Of a stretch of 64,000 nucleotides of DNA, positions 1,973 to 58,303 are shown piece by piece. Origin of the DNA: a virus (Duplodnaviria > Caudoviricetes); IMG/VR virus record IMGVR_UViG_2872728642_000001, positions 1-64,000 of that record. One strand, 5' to 3'. Below the pieces are notes generated by a model that saw only the letters and a program-made list of their open reading frames with translations, was not told where the DNA came from and searched no databases. The position numbers and the translations under genes were made by a program. Position 1 is the first letter of the stretch, and each line of letters begins with the position of its first letter.

Positions 1973-1992
1973 GAAGCGGAATCGCTTTTAGC
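1973..1992. promoter_or_regulatory. Dispersed 21-bp motif, copy 1
   Basis: GAAGCGGAATCGCTTTTAGC; contains the endolysin TAA stop. Confidence 0.6.
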
Positions 1993-2950
1993 GTTGGAAC
2001 ATAGCGATCTTGGCCATGGTCACCTTCTCGACCACCGCCGCGGCGTCGGTCGGGTTGATGATCCGCAGCCGGAGCTGGTGCTTGGTGTTGAGCGCGAACT
2101 GACCGCCCACGGACTGCTCCACCCGGCCGTTGGCGTCGGCGCGGAACGACAGCCGCCAGGCGTCGTCGTCGAACGTCTTGCCGTCCCGCGAGTAGCGCGA
2201 CCAGGCCACGTCGATCTCCGTGCCCGGCTTCAGGCCGCGGACCTTGACCAGGCCGTCCACGATGCACCAGCGAGACGCCTTGGCCAGGACCGCGACTCCG
2301 TCCGCGTTGTGGCCGGGCGGATCGTCCGCGTACTCCGTGTGCCAGCGCACCGCCAGCTCGCCGCTGGCCGGGACGTCCTGGTCCTCACCGGCCCCCAGAG
2401 AGATCACCTCGGGCACGTCTTCCTCCTGCTTGATGGGCGTTCCGGGGTTCTTGATCAGCGCAGTCACCTGCGACCGGAACGAGTTCATGTTGATCGAGTG
2501 GGGGTCCACCTTGCCGGTGTTGACCTCCTTGTGGCCCTTGATCCTGTCCGCCGACAGGCCGAACTCGCGGCACAGCTCGGCGCACAGCGCGTGATAGGCG
2601 TCGAGCTGCACCTGCGGCCACGGCATGCGGCCGTCGTTCTCGGCCTCGATGCCGATGCTCGTGGAGTTCATGTGGTGGGAGCTGGTGGACGGCGCATTGT
2701 GCCAGCACCGCCCGGCGGCGACGACCCAGATCCGGCCGGTGTGCTGCAGCCAGATGTGGCTGAGCGGCCCGTCCAGGCCCGGCCTGCCGTTCACCACGAC
2801 GTGCCGATCATTGAACCCGGCGGTGTGGTGGCACACGACTCCCTCTACGGAGCCCTGCGGCCCGTGGCCACGGGTCTTCCACCCGCCGACCTCCGTCACC
2901 GGGAAGCCGGTCTTCTGCGCGACCTCCGCGAGCTGCGTCAGCCATGGCAT
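1988..2950 (-). CDS. Endolysin, N-acetylmuramoyl-L-alanine amidase (Amidase_2-like) with C-terminal domain
   Basis: VVCHHTAG, WHNA, SIGIEAEN, GHKE and KVDP zinc-amidase motifs. Confidence 0.88.
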   Translation of the reverse strand: MPWLTQLAEVAQKTGFPVTEVGGWKTRGHGPQGSVEGVVCHHTAGFNDRHVVVNGRPGLDGPLSHIWLQHTGRIWVVAAGRCWHNAPSTSSHHMNSTSIGIEAENDGRMPWPQVQLDAYHALCAELCREFGLSADRIKGHKEVNTGKVDPHSINMNSFRSQVTALIKNPGTPIKQEEDVPEVISLGAGEDQDVPASGELAVRWHTEYADDPPGHNADGVAVLAKASRWCIVDGLVKVRGLKPGTEIDVAWSRYSRDGKTFDDDAWRLSFRADANGRVEQSVGGQFALNTKHQLRLRIINPTDAAAVVEKVTMAKIAMFQR

Positions 2951-2978
2951 GGCGTTCTCCTTGGTTGGTTGCGGCTGG

Positions 2979-3317
2979 TCAGCCGCGAGTGAGCTGGATG
3001 AGCGCGATCACCGCGCCCGCCACGGCAACCAGCACAGTTACGACGGCGATGATCTGCCTGGTTCGGTCCGCGAGCTGGGACCGTGTCACGGCCTCCCGCT
3101 CCACCGTGTCCAGACGGGCCTCCAACGCGGCGTACCGAAGCTCAGCCGCAGCGCGGTCCTGCTCAACCTGTCGCGCCAACTCGGCATGCCGGTCGTCCAC
3201 CTGGTCCAAGCGCTGAAGGATCAGCGCGGTGCTGCCGTTCGTACGCTCGAATCCCACCTCGACCAGGCGGCGCAGCGTCTCCAGCGCGAGTGCCAGGTTC
3301 GGCGACTCGTCGCTCAC
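2979..3317 (-). CDS. Coiled-coil protein with C-terminal transmembrane helix (lysis cassette)
   Basis: Heptad-rich body, C-terminal IIAVVTVLVAVAGAVIALI, GTGA overlap. Confidence 0.6.
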   Translation of the reverse strand: MSDESPNLALALETLRRLVEVGFERTNGSTALILQRLDQVDDRHAELARQVEQDRAAAELRYAALEARLDTVEREAVTRSQLADRTRQIIAVVTVLVAVAGAVIALIQLTRG

Positions 3318-3979
3318 GTCACCACCTCGTTGGGCTTCATGCCCACGAACGTGGCCGGAGGCTTAACGAAGAACGAGGGCCGAGCCGGGTCCTCCGACGT
3401 CGCCCGAACCCAGTCGAGGAACGCGCGCTTGCCCGCCACACGGACCGGGTCGATCCGCGTCAGCTCCTTGATCGGGGCCAGCGGATCCACGGGCGCGATA
3501 CGGGAGGAGCCAACGTACTCCAGCGCCCCCTGCCGGTCCGTCTGCGGAGCGGCGGTAATGAGAAGTCTGTGCCGCTTCACAGCAGCGATGCGCGCGAGGC
3601 ACGCCTGGCGGCGGGTCTCATCGGCGACCCCCGGCGTAAACACGCCCGGCAGGCCGTAGGTCTCCTGCAGCACGGCCAGCGCCGCCGGGTCGTCGTGCAC
3701 CAGGGCGTCATTGCGGCTGGGCACAGCCCCTTCGTGCAGGATCACGTCCAGCAGCGTGGCCACGTCGTCCGGATCAAGCCCGTTCTCGGCGGCCCGCCAC
3801 TCGAACGCGGAGTGTGGAAAAGCCTGTACACCGTCCTCGCCAGCGGCGTTGACCAGGTAGATGCCCCACAAGGGTTCCGCTGCCCCGTCAGGGCTCCCGT
3901 CCGCGGCCTCCGCGCCTGGGCGCATGTAGGTGTGGCTGTACGCGAGTTCGGCATCCCACGTGGTCATGATCTGCGGCAC
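3314..3979 (-). CDS. Tail-tip accessory protein, copy 2 (paralog of 6920-7390)
   Basis: Shares W.I.L, P..A.E, DV.LH, R.A.L.R...KR and LAP....RIDPV with 6920-7390. Confidence 0.6.
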   Translation of the reverse strand: MPQIMTTWDAELAYSHTYMRPGAEAADGSPDGAAEPLWGIYLVNAAGEDGVQAFPHSAFEWRAAENGLDPDDVATLLDVILHEGAVPSRNDALVHDDPAALAVLQETYGLPGVFTPGVADETRRQACLARIAAVKRHRLLITAAPQTDRQGALEYVGSSRIAPVDPLAPIKELTRIDPVRVAGKRAFLDWVRATSEDPARPSFFVKPPATFVGMKPNEVVT

Positions 3980-3991
3980 TGTGTCCCCTGT

Positions 3992-11182: not shown

Positions 11183-13555
11183 TCAGATCACCCCCATCGC
11201 GCCCACGTACTGCAGGCTGCGGTTCACCGTCACCGACGTGGGTTCGGCCTGCGGGTAGTGATTCGTCACGTTCACCACCGTCCGCGACAAGGCGCGCCCA
11301 CCGCCGAGACCGTCCGGGACGGTCACGCCCGGCACCGACAGGTCCGGCATCGCCGTCCTCGTCGCGAGCCCGGCGACCTTCTTCAGCGAGGACACGACGA
11401 GCCCGCGGCCCTTGTCCACGCCGATCGACATGCCTTGCATCATGAAGGCTCCGATCTGGGCGAACACCTTCGACGGCGACTTGATGCCGAGGGCGTCCTT
11501 GGCGCTCTTGACGATGTTGGCGAAGAAGTTGCGGACGTTGTTGTACAGGCCGCTGGCCAGCGACTGGAGTTTGTTCCAGAAGCCGGAAACGACGTCCTGG
11601 GCGATGCCCGCCATGGTCGGACCTATGGAGGACACCGCGTTTTTGATCTTGCCTGGGAGCGCCGAGAACCAGCCGATGAGCTTCGTGCCGATCCACGTGC
11701 CGATGGCGGTGACCATGTCGGGGATGATCGAATTGCCGACGAGGATGTTGTACATCCAGCGGAAGATCGCGACTCCGGCCTCGATGGCAGGTTTGATCTG
11801 CGCGACGATCTGGGCCACCTTGGCGCCCATCTGCACGAAGGCGACTCCGAGCTGAGTCACGATCGGGATGACCGGGACGACCGCAGGCAGGATGTCCTTG
11901 ATCGCCATTACAAGCAAATCGGCCAAAAGCGGAATAAGCGGTTTGACGGCATTAATCAGTTCAATAAAGGCAGGAACTAGCCCATTTAGCAGCGACGGGG
12001 CGAGCTGCAGGATCGGCGGCAGCACGGATTGCACAATTGCGCCCGCAATTTGCCCAAAAGCTGCATAAACGGGCTGCATTGCAGGTCCGAGCAGGGCAAA
12101 AGCGGACGAAATGGACGCCAAGGCAGGCTGCAGGGCGCTCGAAAAAGCGCTGATCAGCGGACCGAGCGCAGCCGAGATGTTACTCAGCGCAATGCCAAGG
12201 ACCTGGCCCAGAATGCCCGCTAATTGCGCTACCGCTGGTAGCAGCGGAGCGACTGCAACGAGAGCTGCAGAGAGCCCCTGACCGAGCATGAGCAGCCCGG
12301 ACTGCAGCTCAGGGCTCGCGAACGCTTGTGCGAGCATCTGGGCGACCACGGTCAACCCAGGCCCCAGAGCGGCCAGAGCCGGCCCGAGCGCCGAGACCGC
12401 AGCGGCGAGCCCAGGACCCAGCGCCGTCGCGATGGACGCGATATGCGGCGCGACCAACGCCAACGCGCCGCCCAGTGCCTTGAAGATGGGCATCAGGGCT
12501 GAGCCGACCTGCGACAACGCCCCGAAGATCGCGACGAGCGCTTTCTGGCCCTCCGCGCTCGCCAGGAACTGGTTCAGTTGATCAAGAAGCTGCCCGAGCA
12601 CTCCGAGAGCGTTCGACCCGCCAGCGGACATCGCCGAAAAGACCGACTTGACGATGCCGACCAGGTCGCCGCCGACCTGCCCGAGCTGCTTGAACACGTC
12701 CAGCGCACCCTGCATCCAACTAAGTGCGGTACCGCTTTTAGCGGCGTTGGACAGGAACTCTCCGAACCGCTGAGCCGCAGCCGCGATACCGGGAACCAGT
12801 CCCGACGACCAAGACGCACCGACCACGGCGATGTCGCGAAACCCAGCCAGGAGTGGTTGGATCGCGGGCTGGATCGAGGCGACCGCCGATCGCAGCGAAC
12901 TGAAGATCGACGAGATCGCTGCCACCGTCGCCGACGACGAGGCGAACCGCGCCACCTCTGCGCCGGCGAGACCGAACTCTCTGGCCACGCCCTGCATGCC
13001 GGTCCGCAGCGGCCCGACCATCGCGTCTGCCACCGCCCGGATCTGGCCCGCGAGCGGCCGGAAGAAGGCGTCTTGGACGGCGCTCTTGAGACCGTCGATC
13101 GCGGGCTTGACCGAGTGCAGCTCGCGGGCGGCTGCCTGCGCCGCAGGTGAGAGCCCTGCCAGGCTCTCCTCGAACTTTTTCGGATCATCGCCAAGGGCTG
13201 CGCCGAAGGCGTCGCCCACGTCGGCCAAAGCCACCTTGAGGACAGCCATCGCGCCGACACCGAGCGCGATCATGCCCGGAAGGGCAGCGACAATGCCGCC
13301 TGCCGGGGCCAGCGCTGCGACCAGACCGACCGCGCTCTGCGCCGCCGCAGCCATCGACGCCGCCAGGGTGGCCGCCTTCAGCGCCGCGCCGGTGAACTCG
13401 ACGCCCATCGACCCGGCGCGCTTGGCGACCGCGCCCACGTCGATGTCGATCTTCTTCGCGGCGTCGCGCATGAAGGTCATGAACCGGCGGACAACGGTCG
13501 CGCCCCGGTCCTTCACGTTGATCTCAGCGAACAGTTCGCCGACATTCAGCGCCAC
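11183..13555 (-). CDS. Tape measure protein
   Basis: 790 aa, Ala/Gly/Leu-rich amphipathic repeats, MALNVGELFAEI start, C-terminal LGIKSPSKVF. Confidence 0.9.
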   Translation of the reverse strand: MALNVGELFAEINVKDRGATVVRRFMTFMRDAAKKIDIDVGAVAKRAGSMGVEFTGAALKAATLAASMAAAAQSAVGLVAALAPAGGIVAALPGMIALGVGAMAVLKVALADVGDAFGAALGDDPKKFEESLAGLSPAAQAAARELHSVKPAIDGLKSAVQDAFFRPLAGQIRAVADAMVGPLRTGMQGVAREFGLAGAEVARFASSSATVAAISSIFSSLRSAVASIQPAIQPLLAGFRDIAVVGASWSSGLVPGIAAAAQRFGEFLSNAAKSGTALSWMQGALDVFKQLGQVGGDLVGIVKSVFSAMSAGGSNALGVLGQLLDQLNQFLASAEGQKALVAIFGALSQVGSALMPIFKALGGALALVAPHIASIATALGPGLAAAVSALGPALAALGPGLTVVAQMLAQAFASPELQSGLLMLGQGLSAALVAVAPLLPAVAQLAGILGQVLGIALSNISAALGPLISAFSSALQPALASISSAFALLGPAMQPVYAAFGQIAGAIVQSVLPPILQLAPSLLNGLVPAFIELINAVKPLIPLLADLLVMAIKDILPAVVPVIPIVTQLGVAFVQMGAKVAQIVAQIKPAIEAGVAIFRWMYNILVGNSIIPDMVTAIGTWIGTKLIGWFSALPGKIKNAVSSIGPTMAGIAQDVVSGFWNKLQSLASGLYNNVRNFFANIVKSAKDALGIKSPSKVFAQIGAFMMQGMSIGVDKGRGLVVSSLKKVAGLATRTAMPDLSVPGVTVPDGLGGGRALSRTVVNVTNHYPQAEPTSVTVNRSLQYVGAMGVI
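12722..12742. promoter_or_regulatory. Dispersed 21-bp motif, copy 2 (inside the TMP gene)
   Basis: AAGTGCGGTACCGCTTTTAGC; forces AT-rich codons GCT AAA AGC GGT ACC GCA CTT. Confidence 0.6.
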
Positions 13556-14785: not shown

Positions 14786-14815
14786 GATCACTCCTTGAAA
14801 GGGCATGCTGGAACA

Positions 14816-14837
14816 CTGAAAGCGGGACCGCTTTCAG
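14816..14837. promoter_or_regulatory. Dispersed motif, copy 3
   Basis: CTGAAAGCGG-GA-CCGCTTTCAG palindrome upstream of the tail tube gene. Confidence 0.7.
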
Positions 14838-14854
14838 CAGGGAAAGGGGAGAGG

Positions 14855-17899: not shown

Positions 17900-17924
17900 T
17901 CGGGCCTTTCACCTCTTCAGGAAG

Positions 17925-17946
17925 CTAAAAGCGGTGCCGCTTCTAG
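17925..17946. promoter_or_regulatory. Dispersed motif, copy 4
   Basis: CTAAAAGCGG-TG-CCGCTTCTAG upstream of the capsid gene. Confidence 0.7.
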
Positions 17947-17949
17947 TGA

Positions 17950-30219: not shown

Positions 30220-30379
30220 GCCAGTGACCTCCGAGGGGTGAGAGGGGGAAACCCGGTCCCCGCCGGAAGCAGCGGGCCAGGACAGTGTTCTGTTACCTCA
30301 CAGGCGGTAACGCGCCTTCTACCAGACATGATTACGTAGTGGAGTCATTTGAATACACTTCGCTGCTAGCCGGAGGATC

Positions 30380-31084: not shown

Positions 31085-31208
31085 TCGCTTGCCATCTCGG
31101 CATCACAACCCCCGCCACCGGAGGAGCTGTCAGCCATCCGGCGATCGGGCCCCATCCTCCTCCGCCATCCGAGGCAGTACGCCTTCCCGAGGACCCATGG
31201 AGGTCATC

Positions 31209-33836: not shown

Positions 33837-34058
33837 TCACTCGCTGACCGCCGCAAGCGCGCGGGCCAGCCTCTGCTTACCGCCCCGCGGCCGCAGCGGC
33901 GCCCCCGCCTCCTCCAGCAGCCGGTGAACGAACCCGTACGAGCGGCCCGTCGAGAGCGACAGCCCCCGGATCGACTCCCCGTCCAGGTACCGGCGCTTCA
34001 GCTCCGCCTTCAGCGTCTCGCGCTCGGCACCGGACACCCGCTGATACTTCCGAACCAT
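33837..34058 (-). CDS. Small actinobacterial HTH regulator
   Basis: LKRRY..GESIR.L...TGRSYGFVHRLL.EAG..LR.RGG. Confidence 0.8.
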   Translation of the reverse strand: MVRKYQRVSGAERETLKAELKRRYLDGESIRGLSLSTGRSYGFVHRLLEEAGAPLRPRGGKQRLARALAAVSE

Positions 34059-34083
34059 CACAGCCACCCCTGTCTGATTGCTC

Positions 34084-34353
34084 TCACGCAGCCGCCGCCA
34101 GCCGAACCCGCAACGCATCCCGGCCCTCCGGCGTCTCGGGCACTTCGTCGCCCCGCCAGATGCAGCCCTCGATCGTCGCCAAGTCGGCGAAGTCGTACAC
34201 GACCTCGCGGCCAACCCGGCCCAGCACCCGGACGCCATACCTGCGCGCCCACTGCCGGATCGTCACCGCCTCCCGGCCCAGCCGGACAGCAGCGGTCTTC
34301 GCCGTCGCAGGGGACACCAACACCCCCCGAACAGCGGAAAGCCCCCGAACCAT
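34084..34353 (-). CDS. MerR/Xis-like HTH protein
   Basis: AAVRLGR..VTIRQWARR...VVYDFADL; start uncertain. Confidence 0.55.
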   Translation of the reverse strand: MVRGLSAVRGVLVSPATAKTAAVRLGREAVTIRQWARRYGVRVLGRVGREVVYDFADLATIEGCIWRGDEVPETPEGRDALRVRLAAAA

Positions 34354-34530
34354 GATCGGTCCGAGGGCACAAGTCTCTCCGTCGCTTGGAAGTGTTACAC
34401 AGCCGCATCACCAGGCGCAAGCCGACAGCGGAACCGCAATCAGCGAGGATTGCGAGGGCCCCCCGCTGCAACAGGGAGCCCTCTTCCAACCTGGTCCTCA
34501 AAGGACATGGACAACACTAGCCCCCGAGGT

Positions 34531-36953: not shown

Positions 36954-37787
36954 TTAGAGCTGCTGCGTGCCGTCGATAGCGGTACCGCTTTCAGCAGGCT
37001 GAGCAGCGGTTTCGCTGGTATGCCTGCGCTTGCGGCGTCGCCATCTGATCAGCAGTCCGAGCGTTGCGGCTCCGACTGCCAGTAGGGCGGCGGCCCATGC
37101 GGACCACACAGTTACGGGGTCGCCGGTGGCGGTGTTCGCCGCGTTGAGCTTGCCGGGATCGCCTGTGTCGGCCGTGCTGGGGTCGCCCTGGTCGCCCTTG
37201 GGTCCGGGCGATCCTGGCTTGCCGGACGGTCCGGCGGTTCCGTCGCGCCCGGCGGGCCCTGCGGCTCCGGTCGGTCCGGGCTCACCGGTACCAGCGGGGC
37301 CGGTCGGTCCGGTGGGTCCGGCGCTCCCGGTGGGGCCGGGGTCGCCCTGCGGTCCGGTCGGTCCGGGGTCGCCCTTGGGGCCGGTGCCGCCCTGCTCGCC
37401 CTGGGGTCCGGTGTCGCCCTTGTCACCCTTGGGTCCGGGGACCGGTACGGCGGTGACGGTCGCCGTTGGGCCGGGGTTGCCCTGGGGTCCGGGCGGGCCG
37501 GAAGGTCCGGGGGTTCCCATCGGCCCGGGGTCGCCCTGCGGTCCGGGAGGTCCGGTGACTCCGGGGTCGCCCTGGTCTCCCTTTGGTCCGACCGGTCCGG
37601 GGTCGCCTTGCGGGCCCTGCGGTCCGGGCGGTCCGGGCGGACCGCTGACGGTGACGGTTGCGGTTGGTTCGTCCGCTACCAGCGTTGCCGTGGCCACATC
37701 CCCTCCTGCCTGCGTGTTCGCTACCAGGAACGCGAGCGCCGCTACTGCGGTGAGCCACGCGAGCCGTTCGCTTGTTCGTATCTGCAC
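36954..37787 (-). CDS. Collagen-like surface protein with signal peptide and sortase-like anchor
   Basis: 20 + 28 Gly-X-Y triplets; NTATGD, then a TM helix, then RWRRRKRR. Confidence 0.85.
36975..36995. promoter_or_regulatory. Dispersed motif, copy 5
   Basis: GATAGCGGTACCGCTTTCAGC. Confidence 0.7.
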
Positions 37788-39411: not shown

Positions 39412-39470
39412 CAGGCCCCTTACGTGCTGGTTTTCCAAGGGAGCCACCGAGGGAAGAGGCGTCCCGCAAC

Positions 39471-39491
39471 GATAGCGGTACCGCTTTTAGC
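39471..39491. promoter_or_regulatory. Dispersed motif, copy 6
   Basis: GATAGCGGTACCGCTTTTAGC upstream of the initiator. Confidence 0.75.
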
Positions 39492-41212: not shown

Positions 41213-41754
41213 CTGGCGGGCTCCTTCCGGATGCGCAGCCCGAGGTGGTCGGCGTACGCGGCGGTCCCCGCTGCCCCCTTGCTGGCGGGGTGCAGGTGGG
41301 CCAGGACCTCGAAGGCGCCCCCGCGGCCGGCGGCGAGCCCGAGCATGAACCCGTTGCGGTACGGTCCGGCGGATTTGGCCAGCTCGGGGATGTGCCAGGG
41401 CGCGGGGTGCGTCTCGACGGTGACGCCGGGCGTGTAGTTGGCCCATTCGTACGTCCACCGGTCGCCGCCGGGTGGGTCGTCGGTGTCGGGGTTGTAGCCG
41501 ACGATCACGTGGAGGCGTCCGCCGGCTCGCGCCAGCGTGGACTCGAGGTCGGCTCGGACTCTGTGACGGGCGGCGCCCCGCCACCCGGTGTAGACCAGGG
41601 TGGCGGGGCGCAGGCTGACGAGGGTTTCGAGCTGGGTCCGGAAGTGCTGCCGGACGTGGTCGGCGGCTTCGGGCGGGACGAGCTGGTCGTCGAGGCTGCG
41701 TTTGAGCATGACGAGCAGGACGGCGCGCTCGCTCGGCGTCAAGTGGTCGAGCAT
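41209..41754 (-). CDS. SLOG-superfamily (DUF2493/YspA-like) protein
   Basis: YTG.R, GGD.W...WA, E.HPA.W, AGP.RNG.M and SKG motifs. Confidence 0.7.
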   Translation of the reverse strand: MLDHLTPSERAVLLVMLKRSLDDQLVPPEAADHVRQHFRTQLETLVSLRPATLVYTGWRGAARHRVRADLESTLARAGGRLHVIVGYNPDTDDPPGGDRWTYEWANYTPGVTVETHPAPWHIPELAKSAGPYRNGFMLGLAAGRGGAFEVLAHLHPASKGAAGTAAYADHLGLRIRKEPAR

Positions 41755-42191
41755 CAGCCGTCCCTGTGGGTGCAGGTGGCGACGGTGATGTTCTGGATGA
41801 TCTCGATGACCGCAGGCTTGAGCTCGCCGACCTCGTAGACCGGCCTGCCCAGCTCGTCGTGAACGAGGCGGCCCTGCTCGTCCTGGACGAGAGTGCTGTC
41901 GGCTCGGCCGAAGTTGCGGGAGCCCAGCCCGGTCGGCTGGACCTTGACCTTGGTGACAATGCGGCCGTCCGGCTTGGCGGCTTCGGCCTGGTGCTTGGGG
42001 TTGGCCGGGTCGAACCGGACCCATCGCCACTTGCCGTACTCGTATACGGCGTCCCAGATGTCGATGACGACGCCCTCTTGGATCTCGCACGACCGGTCGG
42101 ACATGCGCGGGTAGAAGACGGTGGTGCCGACCGTGTACGGGTTGCCCCGCCAGTCGGTCAGGGTGCGCGCTTCGGCCTGCTCGCTGGTCAT
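41754..42191 (-). CDS. Hypothetical (SH3-like N-terminus)
   Basis: DWRGNP..VG..V.YP; coupled at both ends. Confidence 0.6.
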   Translation of the reverse strand: MTSEQAEARTLTDWRGNPYTVGTTVFYPRMSDRSCEIQEGVVIDIWDAVYEYGKWRWVRFDPANPKHQAEAAKPDGRIVTKVKVQPTGLGSRNFGRADSTLVQDEQGRLVHDELGRPVYEVGELKPAVIEIIQNITVATCTHRDG

Positions 42192-42652
42192 GACGCCTTT
42201 CTCCTTCGGGTCTCCCAACCGCGCCGTGTCGCCTCGGAGCGGCACTCGCGGCATCGCGCACGGTCGTCCCCGTGCTGGCAGGGCACTGCCTCTGGCACGT
42301 ACGAGAGCCACGAGGTCAGTGCGCGATCGAACTGCTGGCGCTTCGCCGGCCCGAGCCACGTCCACATGACGACGCCCGTGTGCTGCACGTACTCGAAGGT
42401 GTTCACGGCCCACTGGTGGAACGGCTTGGCTCGCTCGTTCCGGCTGTTGTAGGGGCCGTTCACCTTGCCGACGCCAATCACGGCAGCGAACCTGTCGAGA
42501 CGTTCGCGGTCGGACTGAGCGATGGAAATTCCGATCCGCCGGTACGGCGTGCCGCCCTCGGTTCGGCGGGTCACTCCGTAGTGGACATGGCCCTCACCGT
42601 CGAAGAAGCCCGCTGCCCAGGCCAGGGATTCGCGATCCACTCCGATGGCCAT
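42188..42652 (-). CDS. Single-motif LAGLIDADG homing endonuclease, free-standing
   Basis: LAWAAGFFDGEG, I.IAQ.D...L and G.GKV.GPY; short C-terminal C.H...C..C. Confidence 0.8.
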   Translation of the reverse strand: MAIGVDRESLAWAAGFFDGEGHVHYGVTRRTEGGTPYRRIGISIAQSDRERLDRFAAVIGVGKVNGPYNSRNERAKPFHQWAVNTFEYVQHTGVVMWTWLGPAKRQQFDRALTSWLSYVPEAVPCQHGDDRARCRECRSEATRRGWETRRRKAS

Positions 42653-43832: not shown

Positions 43833-44122
43833 GGGGTTCTCCTTTCTCGTGCTGCTTTGCGCTGCAGGCGGCGCCGGTAGGCGCTGCGCTCGTCTTCGTC
43901 GAGGCCTCCGGCGACGCCGTATTGCGCTGCGCTGGCCTGCAGATGGAAGTCCAGACATTCGGTCAGGACGGGGCAGGTGCGGCAGAACTGCTTGGCCCGC
44001 TCGATGCGGGCTTCCTTCTGCTTGGGGGTCTCGCGGGGTTCGCCTTCGCCTGGGCCGAAGAACAGGGCGAGGTTCTGGCCCCGGCAGGCGGCGCTGTTCC
44101 GCCACCCCTTGTGGGCGGACAT
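43826..44122 (-). CDS. whiB-like: WhiB-family Fe-S transcription regulator
   Basis: W...AAC, LFF, AK..CRTCPV..EC and YGVAGG. Confidence 0.9.
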   Translation of the reverse strand: MSAHKGWRNSAACRGQNLALFFGPGEGEPRETPKQKEARIERAKQFCRTCPVLTECLDFHLQASAAQYGVAGGLDEDERSAYRRRLQRKAARERRTPC

Positions 44123-44418
44123 CAACGCCTCCGCTCGGTGAGCCCCATTTCGCGCGCGGCGGCGCTGTACCGTTCGACCTGGCGTAGCGACATCCGCGTC
44201 TCAGCGGCGATCTGCTGCAGCGTCTTGCCGGTGTTGATCAGCTCTGCGACGCGTTGCGCTTTGGCGAGGCTCCTCGGCGTGACGGGGATCCAGGCCGGCG
44301 CGGATTCGGGCCGGATGACTCGGTATCCCGCGTTGCCGAGCGCGTCGAGGATGTCGGTGGCGTTGGGGGCGGCGGACGTGAGGGCGTCGGTGATGACCTC
44401 GGTCGCCGTGTTACTCAT
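44122..44418 (-). CDS. HTH DNA-binding protein
   Basis: GKTLQQIAAETRMSLRQVERY. Confidence 0.75.
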   Translation of the reverse strand: MSNTATEVITDALTSAAPNATDILDALGNAGYRVIRPESAPAWIPVTPRSLAKAQRVAELINTGKTLQQIAAETRMSLRQVERYSAAAREMGLTERRR

Positions 44419-44443
44419 GGGCCTTTCTCCTGCTCATCCGCTT

Positions 44444-44464
44444 GATTGCGGTACCGCTGTCGGC
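44444..44464. promoter_or_regulatory. Dispersed motif, copy 7
   Basis: GATTGCGGTACCGCTGTCGGC. Confidence 0.6.
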
Positions 44465-46169: not shown

Positions 46170-46549
46170 GTGGTGCCGCCCTCGCGGGCGTCGAGCTTGG
46201 CGCGCAGCGCGGTCTTCTCTGCGGCGGTGGCGAGCAGGTCACGCTCGGCCGATTCGGCCCGCTGCACCTGCCCGCTCAGCTCCTCGTTCAGCTTGTAAGC
46301 CAGCTCGGACGCGGCTTCGTACTGGGCTCGGAGCCCGATCATCTCGGTCTCGATGTCGCGTCGCATCATCTCGGCGCCGACGATCAGCCCAAGGAGGATG
46401 CCGACAAACATGCAGACGGTCGCGATGACCAGCGCCCACACACCGCCGAAGACGACCAGGCCGCCGAAGAACGCGACGAACACGCCGAGCACGAAGTACT
46501 TCTGGTACGGCTCAACCTTCGCGACGGCGATCTCGAACCTGGTCTTCAC
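46166..46549 (-). CDS. Membrane protein with C-terminal coiled coil
   Basis: Two TM helices then heptads. Confidence 0.6.
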   Translation of the reverse strand: MKTRFEIAVAKVEPYQKYFVLGVFVAFFGGLVVFGGVWALVIATVCMFVGILLGLIVGAEMMRRDIETEMIGLRAQYEAASELAYKLNEELSGQVQRAESAERDLLATAAEKTALRAKLDAREGGTT

Positions 46550-46899
46550 TTCGTGACCTCGCCCTCGATACTGAGGATGTTGGGGTAGGACGAGGTGACT
46601 TCGACGCGCCACCCGTTGACCTTGAGCCGGTAGGTGCGGCCGGGCTTGATCGCGCCGTAGATGTCGGAGCTGTCGAACTTCAAGCTCAGCCAGGCGTCCG
46701 TGTTCTCATACACGCCCCGATCCGTGAAGATGAGGTACCTGCACGAGCGGCTGCTGTCGCAGACCCGCTCCTTCGACTCCACGGTGGCGGTCTCGATGCG
46801 GCCGGTGCCGGTCTTCGCCACCGCGACGCCGATGATGATCGCGAGGATGAGCGCGAAGAAGATGAGCCCGCCGATGACCTCGACGTCGTGGCGCCTCAT
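46546..46899 (-). CDS. Membrane-anchored OB-fold-like phage protein
   Basis: TM helix then V..KER.C...YLIFT..G..EN.D......KFDSSD.Y...GWR. Confidence 0.65.
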   Translation of the reverse strand: MRRHDVEVIGGLIFFALILAIIIGVAVAKTGTGRIETATVESKERVCDSSRSCRYLIFTDRGVYENTDAWLSLKFDSSDIYGAIKPGRTYRLKVNGWRVEVTSSYPNILSIEGEVTK

Positions 46900-47639: not shown

Positions 47640-48059
47640 TCAGATGAAGTAGTCGGGCTTGAGCGGGGTGTACGGGTCCTCGACCTCCTCGCCGTGCCAG
47701 GCGTTGGCGAGGCGGACGAGGACGACCCACGCGGCGTCGTGGACAGTGCGGGCCAGCGGCGTTCCGAGACGAGCGGCTTCGGACAGGTTCTGGTGCACGT
47801 CGCGGATCCGCTCCAGGCGCTCCCGCTGCTCGTCGAGCTGGTGACGGATGTTGGCGTAGTCCTCGCGAACGGTAGGTTCGGGTATGTACTCGACGAGCAG
47901 CCGGAACGCTTTGCAGAGCAGGCAGTTGCGGCGGTCTTGGCACGTTCCTGCGTGGTGCGCGATCTCGGCGAAAGTGGTGGCACGCCGCTCACGCTCGCGC
48001 TTGTCTCGGGTGAGTCGGTCAGCGCGGAGTGCCGCACGCTGGTCGTTGGTCAGGCGCAT
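47640..48059 (-). CDS. Hypothetical with a H..C..C..C motif
   Basis: TGATG coupling. Confidence 0.6.
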   Translation of the reverse strand: MRLTNDQRAALRADRLTRDKRERERRATTFAEIAHHAGTCQDRRNCLLCKAFRLLVEYIPEPTVREDYANIRHQLDEQRERLERIRDVHQNLSEAARLGTPLARTVHDAAWVVLVRLANAWHGEEVEDPYTPLKPDYFI

Positions 48060-49771
48060 CACTGGCCGCCGTCCGGGGTGACTTCTCCGTCGCTGAGCTT
48101 CTGAAGGAAGGCAGCGAAGTCAGCGTTTGATGCCCCACCAACTGGCGTCTCTATGGCCTGCTCGAACGCGGCGGGCAACTGCTGGTTGGTGCCGCCGAGG
48201 TCGGACCACACGGCGGCGATGCGCTGCTGCAGGTCCTTGCGGCGGGCGGCGGCCTGCTGCATGAGCAGCTTGACCCCGTCGTTCACCTGGGCGGCGTTGA
48301 GCTCCTTCGTCGAGGTGACGGTGACGCCCATGTGCTCGGTGATCCAGGCGAATCGAGCTTCGTCGTTCTTCGCGGCCGACCCCTTGCCGGTGTGGCCCGT
48401 AACTCCTGCCTCGCCGAACCACACGCCGAGGTCGCGCAGCGCCTTGGCGGTGGGCTTCGGCTGCTCCTCGTCCTCGACGACCACCGCGTCCACGATGTCG
48501 TCGCCGTCGTCGGCCGGCGCCGCGGTGTTCTGCGCGCGGGCGGCCTCGAGGAGCGCTTCGGCGCGTTCGGACGCCTTGCGGGGTTCGTCCGCGATCGGAC
48601 CTGCGGCGGGCTGGCCGAGCTGGTCGGCGAACTGCTGGAGCTGCTGCAGGGTCGCGTTCTTCATGGTGGTGCCGGTGCGGTCGCGGAACGCGGTGTGGAG
48701 CTGGCTCGTCGTTCCCGCCCACGCGGTCATGATGTGCTGGCGGATCCGGTCCGCTTCGGGGTCACTCGCCGCCGGCGGCGCGTCCGAGGCTGGCGCCGGG
48801 CTGTGCGGAGGGTCCTCGCGCGGAGCATTGCGCTCGTCCGGCTGTGCAGCGGCCGAGGCGGGTTGTCCCTGTGGGGCGTTCTTGTCCGGCGGCGGGGGGA
48901 AGGTGGCGACGCGGGCCTTGGCCGCGGCCTCGACTTCCTCTCCTCGTCCCTGCCAGGCGGGGTCGAGCTTGGAGGTCCTCCAGACGGCCACGACCGCATC
49001 TCGGTCAGTGGCGGCCTCGATCATCGCAAGGTAGTCGGTCGCGGGCGCGGCCTCGATCGCCCGCTGACCGCCACCACCGCGGCCCAGCTCGGCGCGGCGC
49101 GCGACCTCGCCCGACATCAGCTCGTCGAAGCCGATACCCTCGATCGTCAGGCCGGGCACCATGTACGTGGTCGCCTTGACCACGTTGTCCTTCGGGTCGA
49201 GGAACGAGCCGGTGCGCTCGGCCACGTACAGCCAGGCGTCCACGTACGTCCCCGCGTGGGCCAGGAACTCGGCGGCGTTGGGCAGCTCGGCTGCGGCGTT
49301 GCCGCCCTTGCTGTCCAGCCGCCACAGGCCCAGGCTGGGCACTTCCTTGAGGAAGACACCGAGTCGGGTGTGGGGCTTGCACGGCCGCCTCTTGAGTTCG
49401 ACGTCCGCCCCGCACAGGCACGGGCCGACGAACGGAGCCTGCATCGCGACGCCAGTGCAGCGGCGGATGCACAGCTTGCCGTCCCAGAGCTCCATGTTCT
49501 GGCTCAGGCCGTTGGGCGGGACGATGACGGGGATGCGCTGCGCGTTGGTGATGACCTCGAACTGCGGTCCCTGCGGCGACTTCCATGGCTTGACCTCGCC
49601 GCCGTACTTCTCGGCGACGCCCCGGATCATGTCCTCGGACGGCGACGTGAACCGGAACGTGTCGATCTTGCTGGGATACTCCTTGCCGTTCCGGCTGATC
49701 TTCTTGATGCCGAGGCGGATCCGGCCGTCCTGCCAGTGGCGGCGCTGCAGTACGGAGGGGTCGATGGGCAT
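48059..49771 (-). CDS. phiC31 gp3-like (recombination-directionality-factor-like) protein with a long C-terminal tail
   Basis: GRIRLG, FRFTS, GG..KPW, CIRRC, C.C, CKP.TRL.V.L, G.W.L.SKG.NAA.EL. Confidence 0.7.
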   Translation of the reverse strand: MPIDPSVLQRRHWQDGRIRLGIKKISRNGKEYPSKIDTFRFTSPSEDMIRGVAEKYGGEVKPWKSPQGPQFEVITNAQRIPVIVPPNGLSQNMELWDGKLCIRRCTGVAMQAPFVGPCLCGADVELKRRPCKPHTRLGVFLKEVPSLGLWRLDSKGGNAAAELPNAAEFLAHAGTYVDAWLYVAERTGSFLDPKDNVVKATTYMVPGLTIEGIGFDELMSGEVARRAELGRGGGGQRAIEAAPATDYLAMIEAATDRDAVVAVWRTSKLDPAWQGRGEEVEAAAKARVATFPPPPDKNAPQGQPASAAAQPDERNAPREDPPHSPAPASDAPPAASDPEADRIRQHIMTAWAGTTSQLHTAFRDRTGTTMKNATLQQLQQFADQLGQPAAGPIADEPRKASERAEALLEAARAQNTAAPADDGDDIVDAVVVEDEEQPKPTAKALRDLGVWFGEAGVTGHTGKGSAAKNDEARFAWITEHMGVTVTSTKELNAAQVNDGVKLLMQQAAARRKDLQQRIAAVWSDLGGTNQQLPAAFEQAIETPVGGASNADFAAFLQKLSDGEVTPDGGQ

Positions 49772-51148: not shown

Positions 51149-51151
51149 GCT

Positions 51152-51172
51152 GAATGCGGCACCGCTGTTAGC
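51152..51172. promoter_or_regulatory. Dispersed motif, copy 8
   Basis: GAATGCGGCACCGCTGTTAGC; contains the TAA stop of 51168-51467. Confidence 0.65.
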
Positions 51173-51467: not shown

Positions 51468-51576
51468 GGCGATATGACGCTCCGTGGCTTGGGGGTTTGG
51501 TTTGCCGGGTGTTCATCTGTGCGTTCCCGTTTCGGTCGCACACGATCACACCGACATAACCGACACTATCGCGTCC

Positions 51577-51720
51577 TGACGCACCACGCAACGTCTGACG
51601 CGTCTTATGCGTCATCGCAGCTACCTCGCGTATGTCACGCTATGTAATCAGCAACTTCGCGATGACATATCACGCGTTGACGCGTCAGTTGATACCGTTG
51701 CGCCAGACTCGTATGACGCA
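51577..51720. promoter_or_regulatory. TGACGC(A/G) operator-like repeats in the immunity switch region
   Basis: Copies at 51577, 51596, 51608 (reverse), 51678 (palindrome TGACGCGTCA) and 51714. Confidence 0.6.
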
Positions 51721-51751
51721 TCAAACACCCTGAAGGGACACCCAACTCGCC

Positions 51752-52276
51752 GTGGCCGACCTCAATCAGCCCTCAGAAGTAGTTCAGTACCTCATTGATC
51801 GTCGCAAGAATCCCGGAGGGCTCAAGCGAGGCATCCCCACCCGCGCCGCCGCCGCACGCGCAAAGGAACTGGCCCGCGAAGCGATGTCCGAACCCACCTG
51901 GCGACGCATCGAATCGGGCGAGAGGATCCCGGAAGACCGGGAACTCGTGCTCATGGCAGCCGCGATCAACGACCTGGCGGGCGAGCCTCTCGTCACGCCA
52001 GACGACTTGTACGAGCGGAGCCGGCCAATGGCGGCCGAACTGTTCCGCGAGTGGATCCGTGAGCGCACTGCGGCCGACCCAGCGCTTGCGGACATCGACC
52101 CGAAGCTCGCTCCCGACTCCCTGCAGCAGATACTTCAGAAGATGCTTGGCGAAATCCGCGCGCTACGTGGCGTTACAGCCGCCGAGAAGGCCGAGATGGA
52201 GAAGATCCTGCTGTCGAACGTTGAGTCAACGCTGAAGGCGTACGGCGCCCAATTGCGCATCTTCCGACGCAAGTAG
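51752..52276 (+). CDS. XRE-type HTH repressor (immunity repressor candidate)
   Basis: RAAAAR..KE....MSEPTWRRIESG; divergent from the early operon. Confidence 0.7.
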   Translation: MADLNQPSEVVQYLIDRRKNPGGLKRGIPTRAAAARAKELAREAMSEPTWRRIESGERIPEDRELVLMAAAINDLAGEPLVTPDDLYERSRPMAAELFREWIRERTAADPALADIDPKLAPDSLQQILQKMLGEIRALRGVTAAEKAEMEKILLSNVESTLKAYGAQLRIFRRK

Positions 52277-53382: not shown

Positions 53383-53433
53383 GCGATCCGATCACGGGCG
53401 CGGGTAGCCTGTCGCAGGCCTGACCGAAAGGTT

Positions 53434-55596: not shown

Positions 55597-55674
55597 GAAA
55601 CACATGGAGCCGGACAGGTCACAATCTGCCCGGCTCCATGCCCGTAATCGCAAACGCGGACACAACCCCGCAGG

Positions 55675-56160
55675 TCAACGGATATTCGGCCATTTATCGC
55701 GGCTTGTGACGAACGTTCCGATCGCGGGCACGGTGTATACCCATCCCTGCTCACGGAGCAAAGCCACGGCGGCACTGGCGGTCTTCTTGGCCACGCCGTA
55801 CTGCTCGATCAACTCCAACTGCGAGGGCAGCACCTGATCCGGCCCGTAGTCACCCCGCTTGATGCCCTCTGCGAGGTCGGCGGCGATCTTCTCGAACTCA
55901 CGCGGCTCGCGGATCTGCGGAGCGTCGCGCGGTCCGACGTAGGAGCCATCGGCACGGATGGTGTAGATGACGTCTGCCTCGCGCAGCACCTCCAGGGCTC
56001 TGCGCACTGTCAGCCGTGACGCCTGGTGGGTCGCGCACATTTCGGCTTCCGTGAGGAGTGCCTGGCCGGGCTTAAGTTTGCCGGCGGCGATGTCGTCCTT
56101 GATGGCGTTGACGATCACCTGGTAGATCGGCACTGGACCCCGTGGGCCTCGCTTCGTCAT
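55675..56160 (-). CDS. Tandem double GntR winged-HTH regulator
   Basis: Two GntR domains (Y..I...I...I..G.L.PG..L...; F..IA..L...I..G.Y.P...LPS) and no effector domain. Confidence 0.85.
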   Translation of the reverse strand: MTKRGPRGPVPIYQVIVNAIKDDIAAGKLKPGQALLTEAEMCATHQASRLTVRRALEVLREADVIYTIRADGSYVGPRDAPQIREPREFEKIAADLAEGIKRGDYGPDQVLPSQLELIEQYGVAKKTASAAVALLREQGWVYTVPAIGTFVTSRDKWPNIR

Positions 56161-56239
56161 GGCCGAAGTATACATACCGGGAACCTTTATAGACATTAGG
56201 GGTCTGCCGATCGGGCGGGAAGGCGACGAGCCGAAGACT

Positions 56240-56275
56240 GGGGAGCCCCGGCGCCAAACGGCACCGGGGCTCCCC
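56240..56275. terminator. Hairpin
   Basis: GGGGAGCCCCGG...CCGGGGCTCCCC. Confidence 0.6.
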
Positions 56276-56337
56276 GCGTATTTGTGCAGATACGCGCGAC
56301 CAGCTTACGCCGGGCCGCCCGTCAGCATCGCCTACCG

Positions 56338-56538
56338 TCAGGCAGACCCGTCCTGTTCGATCTGCTTCCACACCTTGGCGCCGGTCTCGACCAGATCGTC
56401 CTCGTTCTCGAAGTGGTCAAGGGCCCACCACAACGTGTTGAACTTGAGGTCGGCGGCGGCACAGACCGCCGCGCCGAGCTTGAAGAGGTCGCGCGCCTGA
56501 TCGTCGGTGACGCCAAGGTGGCTGAAGTCAACGGCCAT
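56338..56538 (-). CDS. Small hypothetical
   Basis: TGATG coupling. Confidence 0.55.
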   Translation of the reverse strand: MAVDFSHLGVTDDQARDLFKLGAAVCAAADLKFNTLWWALDHFENEDDLVETGAKVWKQIEQDGSA

Positions 56539-56753
56539 CACTTTTCACTGCCCTGCGCGGGCTCGCGCCCGGCCGGCTGGTCGGCGGCCAGCTCGGTGAC
56601 CCAGTTGCCCATGACGAGCATCGCGACCAGGCCCAGACCGAGGATCCACGTGATCAGGCCGGTGTCCTTCATCAGATAGGCGAAGGTGAGCCACATCGCC
56701 AGCATGAGCAGCAGCGCGACGAGGCAGACGACGACGCGGATGGTGGGCTTCAT
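56538..56753 (-). CDS. Small 2-TM membrane protein
   Basis: AAGGA RBS; two TM helices. Confidence 0.6.
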   Translation of the reverse strand: MKPTIRVVVCLVALLLMLAMWLTFAYLMKDTGLITWILGLGLVAMLVMGNWVTELAADQPAGREPAQGSEK

Positions 56754-56803
56754 GAGGGGGTTCCTTTCGGTGGAGGTGGGGATGGAGAGATTGTCGTGCG
56801 CGC

Positions 56804-57133
56804 TCACGCCTGCCTCCGGGTGTAGGCCAGGCATGAACCCTTGGAGCAGGTGGGCAGCGGCTCCCGCCCTGCGAGCTTGCGCAGTGCGGGGATAAACGGC
56901 TGGAGGTACCAGATGGACGCCTCGATCAGGACCTGCAGCGCGCCGCCGACGGGGCCCATGACGTCGTAGACCATGGCGTCCTGCTTGACGTGCCTGCGCT
57001 CGTCGCGGCAGCCCTGGCACAGGTCGATCGGGTCGCAGGTGGTGATGAGGGACCACCGCTTGAGGATGCGCGGCGCGGTGTGGGCGACGCCGACCGCCCA
57101 GATCAGGGACAAGACGTCCCACGAGGAGATCAC
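56804..57133 (-). CDS. Hypothetical with C...C..C and C...C motifs
   Basis: GTGA overlap. Confidence 0.5.
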   Translation of the reverse strand: MISSWDVLSLIWAVGVAHTAPRILKRWSLITTCDPIDLCQGCRDERRHVKQDAMVYDVMGPVGGALQVLIEASIWYLQPFIPALRKLAGREPLPTCSKGSCLAYTRRQA

Positions 57134-57528
57134 TGCGGCCGCATCTCGTATGGCGTCAGCCCGTACCGGGTACTGAGCGTGCGGACGATCTCGATGGCCA
57201 CGCGCCGGTCTTCGGCCTCGTCGTAGTCCTCAGGGTGGCTGTAGATCGGCTGGTCCTCGTCGTCGTATTCGAGGTCGAACAGCTCGGGCCGGTTGGGCAT
57301 GTGGAGTTCCCAGGTGCCGCCGTAGTGGTCGGCGTCCCTCCGGGCTTCATCTCGGACTTCCTGCACCTCGACCCAGGCTCGGGTGAGGGTGAGGGCGTTC
57401 TCGTACTGCCCCTCGACGGCGGTGGCCTGGACGGATGCGGTTTCGGCCGACTCGCCGGGCTTGGCGCACAGCAGTCCGGCCACCTGGGCGATCTCGTCGC
57501 GAGTGATGTAGCCAGAGATGCTGGTCAT
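57130..57528 (-). CDS. Acidic hypothetical
   Basis: ATGA overlap. Confidence 0.6.
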   Translation of the reverse strand: MTSISGYITRDEIAQVAGLLCAKPGESAETASVQATAVEGQYENALTLTRAWVEVQEVRDEARRDADHYGGTWELHMPNRPELFDLEYDDEDQPIYSHPEDYDEAEDRRVAIEIVRTLSTRYGLTPYEMRPQ

Positions 57529-58229
57529 CGGCTGCACCGGATCGCGTCGTACACATCGCGGTCGAGGCGGGCGTCCCCGAGCGCGGTGTGCTTGGTGCCC
57601 GCGTCCTGGGCGACGCCAACGATCTCCCAGGACGGGCTGTCCATGTAGCCGCCCAGCCAGTCCTCAACGTACGGCACGGCCTCGGCTCCGAACGCCTCGT
57701 CCACCTTGCCGTCGTAGGCGGACAGTCGGCCGTCTACGTAGCCGATCAGCAGGGCGCGGATGTCGATCATGCGGTGGTGGGCGGTGAGGAGCTGCCCGTT
57801 GGCCCGCAGGAACTTGTCCACGAACTTCCGGTCGTGGGTCGGGTTGTTGGCGACGATGGTGGCACCGTCCAGCTCTCGGGCGATCGTGGCGGCGATGCTT
57901 CCGGCGCTGGCCTGCATGTACCAGTCGCCCTCTGCCGGGGGCTCGCCGGTGTACTCGTGGATCCACGGACTGCCGAGGTTGATGGCGGGCGAGAGCTTCC
58001 GGCCAGCGCCGATGGGCGAGCGCCTGACGCGGCACCGCTCGTAGTACCGGCCGACCTTCAGGGCGTTGGGGTCGGCGAGCGTCAGGTCCGGGCGGACCTG
58101 CCACCAGTGTTCGATGTCGGTCCTGATCGGCTGGCGCAGGTCACGCATGATGAGGCCGATCTCCCAAAGGTCGCCGTGGCGTTCGTCGAGGGAGGTCGTT
58201 TCAAGGTCGAGGAAGGCGAGTTTCTTCAC
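57525..58229 (-). CDS. DEDDh 3'-5' exonuclease (DnaQ-like)
   Basis: FLDLETT, N...D..F and HTALGDA. Confidence 0.85.
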   Translation of the reverse strand: MKKLAFLDLETTSLDERHGDLWEIGLIMRDLRQPIRTDIEHWWQVRPDLTLADPNALKVGRYYERCRVRRSPIGAGRKLSPAINLGSPWIHEYTGEPPAEGDWYMQASAGSIAATIARELDGATIVANNPTHDRKFVDKFLRANGQLLTAHHRMIDIRALLIGYVDGRLSAYDGKVDEAFGAEAVPYVEDWLGGYMDSPSWEIVGVAQDAGTKHTALGDARLDRDVYDAIRCSR

Positions 58230-58282
58230 GTGCTTCTCCCGTGTGAGGGGGGAGCTTCCCCGCCCGGGCGGGCGAGGAAGCT

Positions 58283-58303
58283 GATTGTGTTAGCGCTTTT
58301 AGC
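58283..58303. promoter_or_regulatory. Dispersed motif, copy 9 (degenerate)
   Basis: GATTGTGTTAGCGCTTTTAGC, 17/21 to copy 6; contains a TAA stop; hairpin at 58253-58282 follows. Confidence 0.5.

Follow-up and report, generated by a model that had tools for sequence, protein, structure and literature searches.

In this study, we found that a 24-bp palindrome repeated through a large actinomycete prophage is most likely the binding site of a silencing phage protein, since its copies are specific to the element, follow stop codons in the lytic gene rows and occupy the same junctions in related prophages. The first-pass annotation of the window, the whole stretch of 64,000 nucleotides that was analysed, had proposed a global operator, roadblock or activator network. 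Dispersed, element-specific and putatively protein-binding sites at early and late genes agree with this proposal, and a repressor or roadblock role fits them; the activator or promoter role does not. Judged from sequence comparison, the chances are about even that the copies are operators and elongation roadblocks for a phage-encoded repressor, comparable to stoperators.

Form and distribution of the palindrome

The element had been described as a 21-mer in nine copies. This 21-mer is the core of a 24-bp palindrome, in which one 12-bp consensus is common to both halves. The form found in related prophages is GCTGATAGCGGTACCGCTATCAGC, and in this prophage one half is frequently GCTAAAAGCGGT. 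All 13.77 Mb of the genome were scanned with a symmetric PWM at a cut-off of at least 20 bits. Seventeen sites were obtained, every one within C2:6451381-6546010 (11 in the window and 6 in its flanks), and all are contained in a single 98.4-kb integrated prophage bounded by a 17-bp att repeat. The scan gave no site of at least 20 bits in the remaining 13.7 Mb, so the comparison with host chromosome and shuffled sequence that had been suggested earlier spoke clearly for the element. Because the sites are specific to the prophage, a host factor with its own regulon is an unlikely reader.

Seven of the nine positions listed earlier matched the 21-mer with at most three mismatches (0 expected, 100 shuffles). 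The other two, 1973 and 17925, were weaker and were detected only when the motif was modelled as a 24-bp palindrome. Two copies in the window, at 12219 in the tape-measure gene and at 34421, were absent from that list. The copies in the window are as follows.

1969..1992, minus strand: between the endolysin gene, whose TAA stop is inside the motif, and a 98-aa gene
12219..12242, minus strand: within the tape-measure gene, with five synonymous changes to rare A/T-ending codons compared to relatives
12719..12742, minus strand: second copy in the tape-measure gene, common to G045 and Nonomuraea basaltis
14815..14838, minus strand: 29 nt 5' of the major tail protein gene; orthologous position in G303, G045, G013 and G263
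17924..17947, minus strand: 2 nt past the stop of a scaffold-like gene and 24 nt 5' of the major head gene
34421..34444, minus strand: half-site order reversed; directly adjoins the -35 hexamer of a promoter-like site that is conserved
36972..36995, minus strand: last codons of a collagen-like gene, followed by a G+C-rich hairpin
39468..39491, minus strand: fills the spacer of a sigma-70-like promoter 5' of the O-like replication initiator gene
44441..44464, minus strand: immediately past the upstream stop codon and 22 nt ahead of a 98-aa HTH_23 gene
51149..51172, minus strand: occupies the whole 19-nt gap between genes 1 and 2 of the leftward early operon
58280..58303, minus strand: weakest core; includes the upstream TAA stop and is followed by a hairpin and then an exonuclease-like gene

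All 17 strong sites belong to gene rows on the minus strand, which is the lytic direction, with the right-end early operon at one end of their range and the lysis genes and left arm at the other. The plus-strand blocks contain no strong site; the sole near match there is a 5-mismatch site within one plus-strand gene.

Placement at stop codons and conservation in relatives

Most copies had been reported to sit at gene junctions. This was borne out, as 12 of the 17 sites are intergenic while intergenic DNA makes up 13% (P = 8e-8). The downstream genes named earlier were also recovered with PHROGs and Pfam (major head, major tail, O-like replication initiator, HTH protein and exonuclease-like protein). 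Most copies begin 0-3 nt past the stop codon of the upstream gene or include that stop. Among 138 sites from 16 elements, 83 had a clear upstream ORF end, and the stop codon was within the motif or 0-3 nt before it at 62 of these. The motif stands 0 to about 75 nt from the start codon, and its position is fixed with respect to the upstream stop codon instead. At 51149..51172, the upstream TAA is inside the motif and the next ATG follows directly. The three TAA stops said to be supplied by the motif were confirmed at window positions 1988, 51168 and 58299, and a fourth was found outside the window.

The tape-measure copies use A/T-ending rare codons, in line with the earlier claim, and the same codons at 12719..12742 are without the motif in G303, G159 and G013. 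In contrast, the statement that all asymmetric copies point the same way was reduced to a trend. In this prophage the upstream half was the better one at 12 of 18 sites; over five elements, with orthologous sites that are not independent of each other, it was the better one at 40 of 64. Reversed order is seen in the capsid copy and in the two leftmost copies. Uniform orientation is thus weakly supported.

The relation of the sites to promoters and terminators was then considered. Only site 39468 overlaps a sigma-70-type pattern (-35/-10, 16-18 nt spacing). It lies between -35-like and -10-like hexamers, and 11 relatives retain the TAnnnT -10 hexamer, in two versions of the sequence. The promoter-like site at 34421..34444, together with a leader hairpin, precedes a 60-aa MerR/Xis-like gene and an HTH_58 gene. 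In several cases 0-13 nt lie between the end of the copy and a start codon or ribosome-binding site; this leaves no space for a transcription start, and the option of an activator or phage promoter therefore does not fit. Strong G+C-rich hairpins stand within about 10-35 nt after 5 of the 17 sites, and the other 12 have none. The first site is about 200 nt past the right-end early promoter region, before the first gene, and has a hairpin after it.

Syntenic prophages were found in at least 15 other Streptosporangiaceae genomes, with the motif at orthologous junctions (capsid, tail tube and early operons). The position of the copy at 17924..17947 is orthologous in all relatives checked. At orthologous junctions the motif is kept and the flanks have diverged, and this comparison shows that the sites are under selection. 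The lineage was found in Nonomuraea, Thermocatellispora, Sphaerimonospora and related genera, and in G007 a related element is represented by its left part alone, which has two sites. When all species genomes were scanned for the exact pattern, matches outside Streptosporangiaceae were mostly chance singletons. No close relative was found in the phage collection by megablast and blastn with the window as query. The nearest isolated phages by capsid protein are Streptomyces Hiyaa-like and some Gordonia phages (48-64% identity). A literature search for the core sequence returned cloning primers only.

DNA or RNA, and rival explanations

A position at the stop codon would also suit a transcript hairpin at the 3' end of the upstream cistron, with a role in processing, stability or translational coupling, and the consensus of the relatives is a perfect palindrome with a possible 10-bp stem. 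However, for sense and antisense RNA alike, cognate halves were no more complementary than shuffled partners (7.97 versus 8.02 of 10, p = 0.87), and position 7/18 was less complementary than expected by chance. No compensatory pairing or covariation between the halves was seen. Of 8 copies tested, those at the capsid and tail-tube genes fold well into the palindromic hairpin (z = -4.4 and -5.2), but 5 did no better than their shuffles, with z -0.6 to -1.7, and another copy (z -2.8) takes a fold other than the palindromic hairpin. No Rfam family matched within the window. These results show that the motif acts as DNA, not RNA, and we regard the transcript hairpin as very unlikely. The hairpins after five sites bear on a further possibility, that an early protein times expression during lytic growth by early shut-off, attenuation or the loading of a read-through factor onto RNA polymerase. 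The first site resembles a promoter-nut-terminator layout, and the gene of the HTH_23 candidate, which is part of the early operon, has a site at its start. Yet processive antitermination requires one or two loading sites and not 17, no hairpin follows 12 of the sites, the motif does not behave as a nut-type RNA hairpin, and the site in the initiator promoter spacer holds a repressing position. Such a timing role is unlikely, although the G+C-rich hairpins would also suit termination or antitermination.

Sites of ParB, Noc and KorB are 13-16 bp palindromes scattered over a replicon, and the scattered palindromes described here look like them. Genes for a ParB_N protein (window 28523-29164) and for an HU-family protein (60586-60864) are also present in the element. 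The motif could then serve in DNA organisation, through ParB-like or HU-like binding or loading that leads to condensation, segregation of the excised circle, or spreading and silencing as by KorB or Noc. We consider this quite improbable. The C-terminal half of the ParB-like protein, where the site-reading domain is expected, is not kept in G159 and G263, and the motif is unchanged there; this variable C-terminus argues against the ParB-like protein as binder. Its gene adjoins the terminase genes, as those of actinophage ParB-like nuclease-domain proteins often do, and sequence reading by HU proteins is rare. DNA organisation also gives no reason for the tight placement after stop codons or for the site in a promoter spacer. 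That identical sequence stands at many gene borders of mosaic relatives would be expected if the copies were recombination linkers, short common border sequences that promote module exchange between related phages. But the indels between relatives (window 41754-42652, 46546-46899, 56338-57537 and 29161-31550) are without flanking motif copies, linkers would not need a palindrome, and building one inside a gene at the cost of rare codons is not expected. This last explanation appears extremely unlikely.

Immunity region, candidate binders and known systems

The features of the immunity region and the gene of one candidate binder are listed below.

51474..51723, no strand: TGACGC/GCGTCA repeat cluster in the divergent region that separates the CI-like gene from the early operon
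51752..52276, plus strand: CI-like repressor gene (XRE-type HTH, 174 aa), with a recognition helix nearly invariant in relatives
55675..56160, minus strand: double-GntR gene (two GntR-type winged helices, about 161 aa), candidate binder

The divergent region at 51468-51751 holds five or six TGACGC-type repeats, which are conserved in G303, G159, G263 and G013, and contains no copy of the 24-bp motif. These repeats are likely the operators of the main repressor. Since the immunity region has the TGACGCGTCA-type repeat and no motif copy, the 24-bp sites are probably not the operators of that repressor. The motif is probably a second regulatory layer beside the immunity switch.

We next examined which protein may read the motif. 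Among the proteins concerned, Pfam and PHROGs gave XRE, GntR, HTH_23, HTH_58 and MerR-like domains only. Four or five proteins are candidate binders: the double-GntR protein, the MerR/Xis-like protein of 60 aa (34084-34266), the HTH_58 protein (33837-34118), the HTH_23 protein (44122-44418), whose gene lies inside the early operon, and as a possible fifth the CI-like protein. A strong terminator stands before the double-GntR gene's own leaderless-type promoter, and the gene lies convergent to its neighbour, the CI-like gene; its promoter region contains no full copy of the motif. An Arg/Ser variant in the second GntR recognition helix did not track the A-rich versus G/T outer variants of the motif, and the column-by-column co-variation test is confounded by shared ancestry. 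Host paralogues of the protein adjoin a GTCTAGAC-type palindrome and not the 24-bp motif. Two other groups were rejected as binder: tblastn found no match to the XRE/peptidase/7-TM trio in G159 or G263, and none to the left-arm WhiB and HutC-type GntR proteins in the stretch of G303 that was examined.

In the preferred explanation, a prophage-encoded DNA-binding protein with two-fold or nearly two-fold symmetry would read the motif as a double-stranded DNA operator, and the bound protein would repress the lytic gene rows. The protein binding, the repression by binding and the identity of the binder are what we infer. At site 39468 the protein would sit in the promoter-like spacer of the initiator, a classical position for repression, and the site abutting a -35 element may provide a second promoter context. 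At most sites, which lie in the very short gap past a stop codon within long co-directional operons, the bound protein would stop or slow elongating RNA polymerase. The CI-like repressor presumably acts through the TGACGCGTCA-type operators, which stand at three promoter regions, and the 98-kb prophage would then have two silencing layers. A symmetric dimer leaves unexplained why the upstream half is somewhat better conserved (40:24). Roadblocks before the capsid and tail genes would need to be lifted in lytic growth, and no mechanism for this is visible. A more specific form of the proposal is that the two layers are independent, with CI-like protein at the three TGACGC-type promoter regions and a second protein, at best guess the double-GntR protein made in the lysogen from its insulated gene, clamping 17 stop-codon roadblocks. 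We hold this form to be rather unlikely. If it were true, blocked transcripts of the upstream genes would be without a stop codon.

L5-type and R4-type phages provide a precedent for dispersed repressor sites in short gaps between genes (PMC9283540, PMC10276819). The stoperators of Cluster A mycobacteriophages (L5 gp71, TipsytheTRex repressor) and of relatives of Streptomyces phage R4 resemble the present sites in that they occur in many phage-specific copies at early and late genes, in short intergenic gaps of co-directional operons and also at a promoter. However, they are 13-bp asymmetric sequences read by a two-domain monomer, whereas the motif here is a 24-bp palindrome. They are also strictly orientation-dependent, in contrast to the weak polarity observed here. 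The Cluster A/R4 stoperator doubles as the early-promoter operator beside the repressor gene, a position where this prophage has another repeat.

The conserved inverted repeats (CIRs) of Streptomyces phage phiC31, about 17 bp long, are bound by the c repressor isoforms. They are alike in being an inverted repeat that recurs at well over ten loci of a temperate actinophage, many of which are not at promoters, but they differ in sequence and length and are sites of the main repressor. The different repeat at the immunity switch here argues against the main repressor as reader of the 24-bp motif, unlike in phiC31. The operators of IncP KorB and the sites of ParB and Noc are likewise a palindrome repeated over a mobile element, about a dozen times, in one global regulon. 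Their reader is a ParB-family protein with an HTH domain, whereas the ParB-like protein here is without a conserved second domain, and placement at stop codons is seen here and is not known from those systems. Start-associated sequences of Cluster K and 17-bp palindromes of Cluster O mycobacteriophages are also conserved short repeats at gene borders within structural operons, with unproven function. In the start-associated sequences, the ribosome-binding site is part of the repeat and its distance to the start codon is constant, whereas the start distance varies here and the relation to the stop is fixed. The kind of system is thus known, and the palindromic version found here was previously undescribed.

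Dispersed repressor sites that stop elongation have so far been found in a few actinophage groups, where they are read by the main immunity repressor. The prophage described here, large at 98 kb, belongs to an uncharacterised lineage with a palindromic version of such sites. The features that stand out are their unusually faithful retention, their apparent separation from the operators of the immunity switch, and selection that overrides codon choice in a structural gene. The system could address how prophages of such length are silenced and why the sites stand at stop codons. In addition, the motif can serve as a practical marker to find and delimit prophages of this lineage.

A 24-bp palindrome within a 98.4-kb prophage

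The first-pass annotation had described a 21-bp semi-palindromic element in nine copies. Seven of the nine listed positions matched the 21-mer with at most three mismatches, and two places beyond those listed also matched. The copies at 1969 and 17924 were weaker. When all copies were aligned on their centres, the unit proved to be a 24-bp palindrome of two 12-bp half-sites, and both weaker copies were recovered once this palindrome was used. No 21-mer match is expected in shuffles. A symmetric weight matrix with a threshold of at least 20 bits was run over the whole host genome (13.77 Mb in four contigs, 72% G+C), in which the window spans C2:6471381-6535380. It returned 17 sites, 11 in the window and 6 just outside, all within C2:6451381-6546010. 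The rest of the genome held no site of at least 20 bits (best score, 17 bits), and a similar density in the host chromosome was thus not found. The core 12-bp palindrome with any two central bases had 42 matches in the host genome versus 196 for the reversed pattern, and is the rarer of the two.

From -20 kb to +76 kb of the window, nearly all genes lie on the minus strand. A 17-bp direct repeat, CTACGACGTGTGACGGC, bounds a 98.4-kb prophage and marks attL and attR, with all 17 sites inside. One repeat copy lies at the 3' end of a 474-aa host gene, the integration site, and the other just past a tyrosine integrase gene.

C2:6451195-6451211 and C2:6549586-6549602 (window -20186 and 78206), copies of the 17-bp direct repeat
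Window 76889-78163, tyrosine integrase gene

In the related genome G007, the same host gene adjoins a related left arm. PHROGs and Pfam identified structural and lysis genes (major head, major tail, tape measure, endolysin), O-like initiators, a DnaJ-domain protein, a Gp3-like domain, ParB-like and HU-like proteins and several HTH proteins. The Gp3-like domain, that of the recombination directionality factor of serine integrases, is in a 570-aa early protein (window 48059-49771), yet both integrases seen in the element (31733-32701 and 76889-78163) belong to the tyrosine type. A weak LAGLIDADG-like ORF (window 42188-42652) lies in a two-gene insert absent from relatives, and a plus-strand gene with a GmrSD_C domain (type IV restriction endonuclease family; window 30380-31084) lies in a variable region.

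Position of the sites relative to genes

Placement at gene junctions, as originally proposed, was confirmed: 12 of the 17 sites are intergenic, versus 13% intergenic DNA in the element (P = 8e-8). Every one of the 17 is in a minus-strand gene row, and the plus-strand blocks hold a single weak match (5 mismatches) within a plus-strand gene. Read along the direction of transcription, nine of the 17 contain the upstream stop codon or begin 0-3 nt past it. Of the 138 sites found in 16 elements, 83 had a clear upstream ORF end; the stop codon lay at motif positions 3-5 in 30 of these, at positions 6-8 in 6 and 0-3 nt ahead of the motif in 26. The orientation previously taken as uniform proved to be only a trend (40:24). 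G+C-rich hairpins lie downstream of 5 copies.

The gap between the motif and the next start codon ranged from 0 to about 75 nt. At several copies there is no space for a transcript start before the ribosome-binding site, which speaks against promoter or activator function and disfavours the activator option of the first-pass annotation. Promoter-like sequences were found at 39468, which occupies the 17-nt spacer between -35-like and -10-like hexamers upstream of the initiator gene; a TAnnnT hexamer at this position is kept, in two different versions, in 11 of 11 relatives examined. The copy at 34421, with reversed half-site order, adjoins a conserved -35-like hexamer, followed by a conserved leader hairpin and two small DNA-binding genes. 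The best-supported reading is the global operator or roadblock network already suggested, in which a putative element-encoded protein would act at the motif sites. Judged from sequence, with sites confined to the element and placed at gene junctions, we give it about an even chance.

Downstream of 34421, five relatives conserve the nucleotide sequence of window 34270-34420 (minus strand). This stretch contains a -35/-10-like pair, then a hairpin with an 11-bp stem and a U-rich tail, then the 60-aa MerR/Xis-like gene, and looks like a leader attenuator or small RNA.

Conservation in relatives and reading on DNA

Scanning 401 genomes of the same family for the pattern gave motif clusters in G303, G013, G045, G159 and G007. 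The motif occurred in Sphaerimonospora mesophila and Thermocatellispora tengchongensis (both among the clustered genomes), Nonomuraea basaltis and other Nonomuraea; G263 and nine more Nonomuraea genomes also bear it. These motif-bearing relatives are syntenic prophages with 35-95% protein identity. Their consensus is a perfect palindrome, whereas in the studied element A is frequent at positions 4 and 6 of the upstream half. The orthologous junctions that carry the motif are those preceding the capsid gene and the tail-tube gene, that at the start of the right-end early operon and the counterparts of window 70220, 64164, 58280, 51149, 44441, 39468, 36972 and 34421. In spacer alignments, the motif is a conserved block between diverged flanks.

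A palindrome could also act as an RNA hairpin. Folding of 8 copies gave a hairpin with a clear z-score in the capsid and tail-tube copies only, and no Rfam family matched in the window. No compensatory pattern was found between positions i and 25-i, and position 7/18 was complementary less often than chance. Within each element, in both sense and antisense RNA readings, cognate halves paired no better than halves from different sites (7.97 versus 8.02 of 10, p = 0.87). These results indicate that the symmetry stems from two similar half-sites that are read on double-stranded DNA, and RNA-level action is largely excluded. The tape-measure copies do lie in AT-rich codons, as the first reading held for one of them. 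At 12219, the peptide is nearly as in relatives (one residue differs), and five A/T-ending rare codons together form the motif. The 12719 copy is common to G045 and N. basaltis, and G303, G159 and G013 have ordinary G+C-rich codons there. The codon comparison indicates that the DNA sequence itself is under selection, with sites gained in some lineages.

A second operator family and candidate binding proteins

Between the CI-like gene (window 51752-52276, plus strand; the presumed main repressor) and the leftward early operon, the divergent region contains five or six TGACGC/GCGTCA repeats but no 24-mer copy. TGACGC/GCGTCA clusters were found in three regions, which are A+T-richer and promoter-like, and the repeats often form a 10-bp palindrome.

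Window 51474-51723, divergent immunity region
L007:10830-10940, upstream of the right-end early operon
L007:12690-12720, upstream of a 354-aa initiator-like gene adjoining the integrase

G303, G159, G263 and G013 all conserve the divergent region with its repeats, and also the recognition helix of the CI-like protein. On the simplest reading, the CI-like repressor uses the TGACGC/GCGTCA sites and the 24-mer belongs to another protein. The immunity repressor of phiC31 owns the dispersed sites of that phage, whereas the 24-mer is apparently apart from the CI-like repressor. The dispersed sites of L5 and R4 are likewise read by the immunity repressor (PMC9283540, PMC10276819); that the 24-mer is apparently another protein's is the main difference. 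The kind of system is already known, and its palindromic, stop-codon-anchored, apparently CI-independent form in a new prophage lineage is apparently new.

With no site in the host chromosome, the putative binder is expected to be encoded by the element. The double-GntR protein may be this binder. Its gene (window 55675-56160, minus strand) adjoins the CI-like gene and is served by a leaderless-type promoter of its own, downstream of a strong terminator; this arrangement would fit a protein made in the lysogen. Among 401 family genomes sampled, close orthologues (E below 1e-45) occurred only in G045, G013, G303, G263 and G159; all five also hold motif clusters, a pattern that any gene of the lineage should show. 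Testing the second GntR helix against the motif variants for co-variation gave a negative result, and ancestry confounded a broader column-by-column test. The very conserved 60-aa MerR/Xis-like protein, the HTH_58 protein and the HTH_23 protein, whose gene has a site at its own start, may also be candidates. Several other proteins were excluded or are unlikely as binders. For the XRE/peptidase/7-TM trio, tblastn gave no match in G159 or G263, and for the left-arm WhiB and HutC-type GntR it gave none in the part of G303 that was examined. The C-terminal half of the ParB-like protein is not conserved in G159 and G263, and the HU-like protein would have little sequence specificity.

Homologues place the double-GntR start 27 nt upstream of the initial gene call, giving about 161 aa. 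Upstream of the gene, window 56134-56300 (minus strand) has a 22-bp imperfect palindrome and a very strong G+C-rich terminator hairpin, and a TAnnnT hexamer lies about 6 nt ahead of the ATG. This bacterial family has many genes that encode proteins with two GntR winged helices, and they often occur as neighbouring pairs; one host pair, C2:7743912-7744890, adjoins a GTGTCTAGACAC palindrome.
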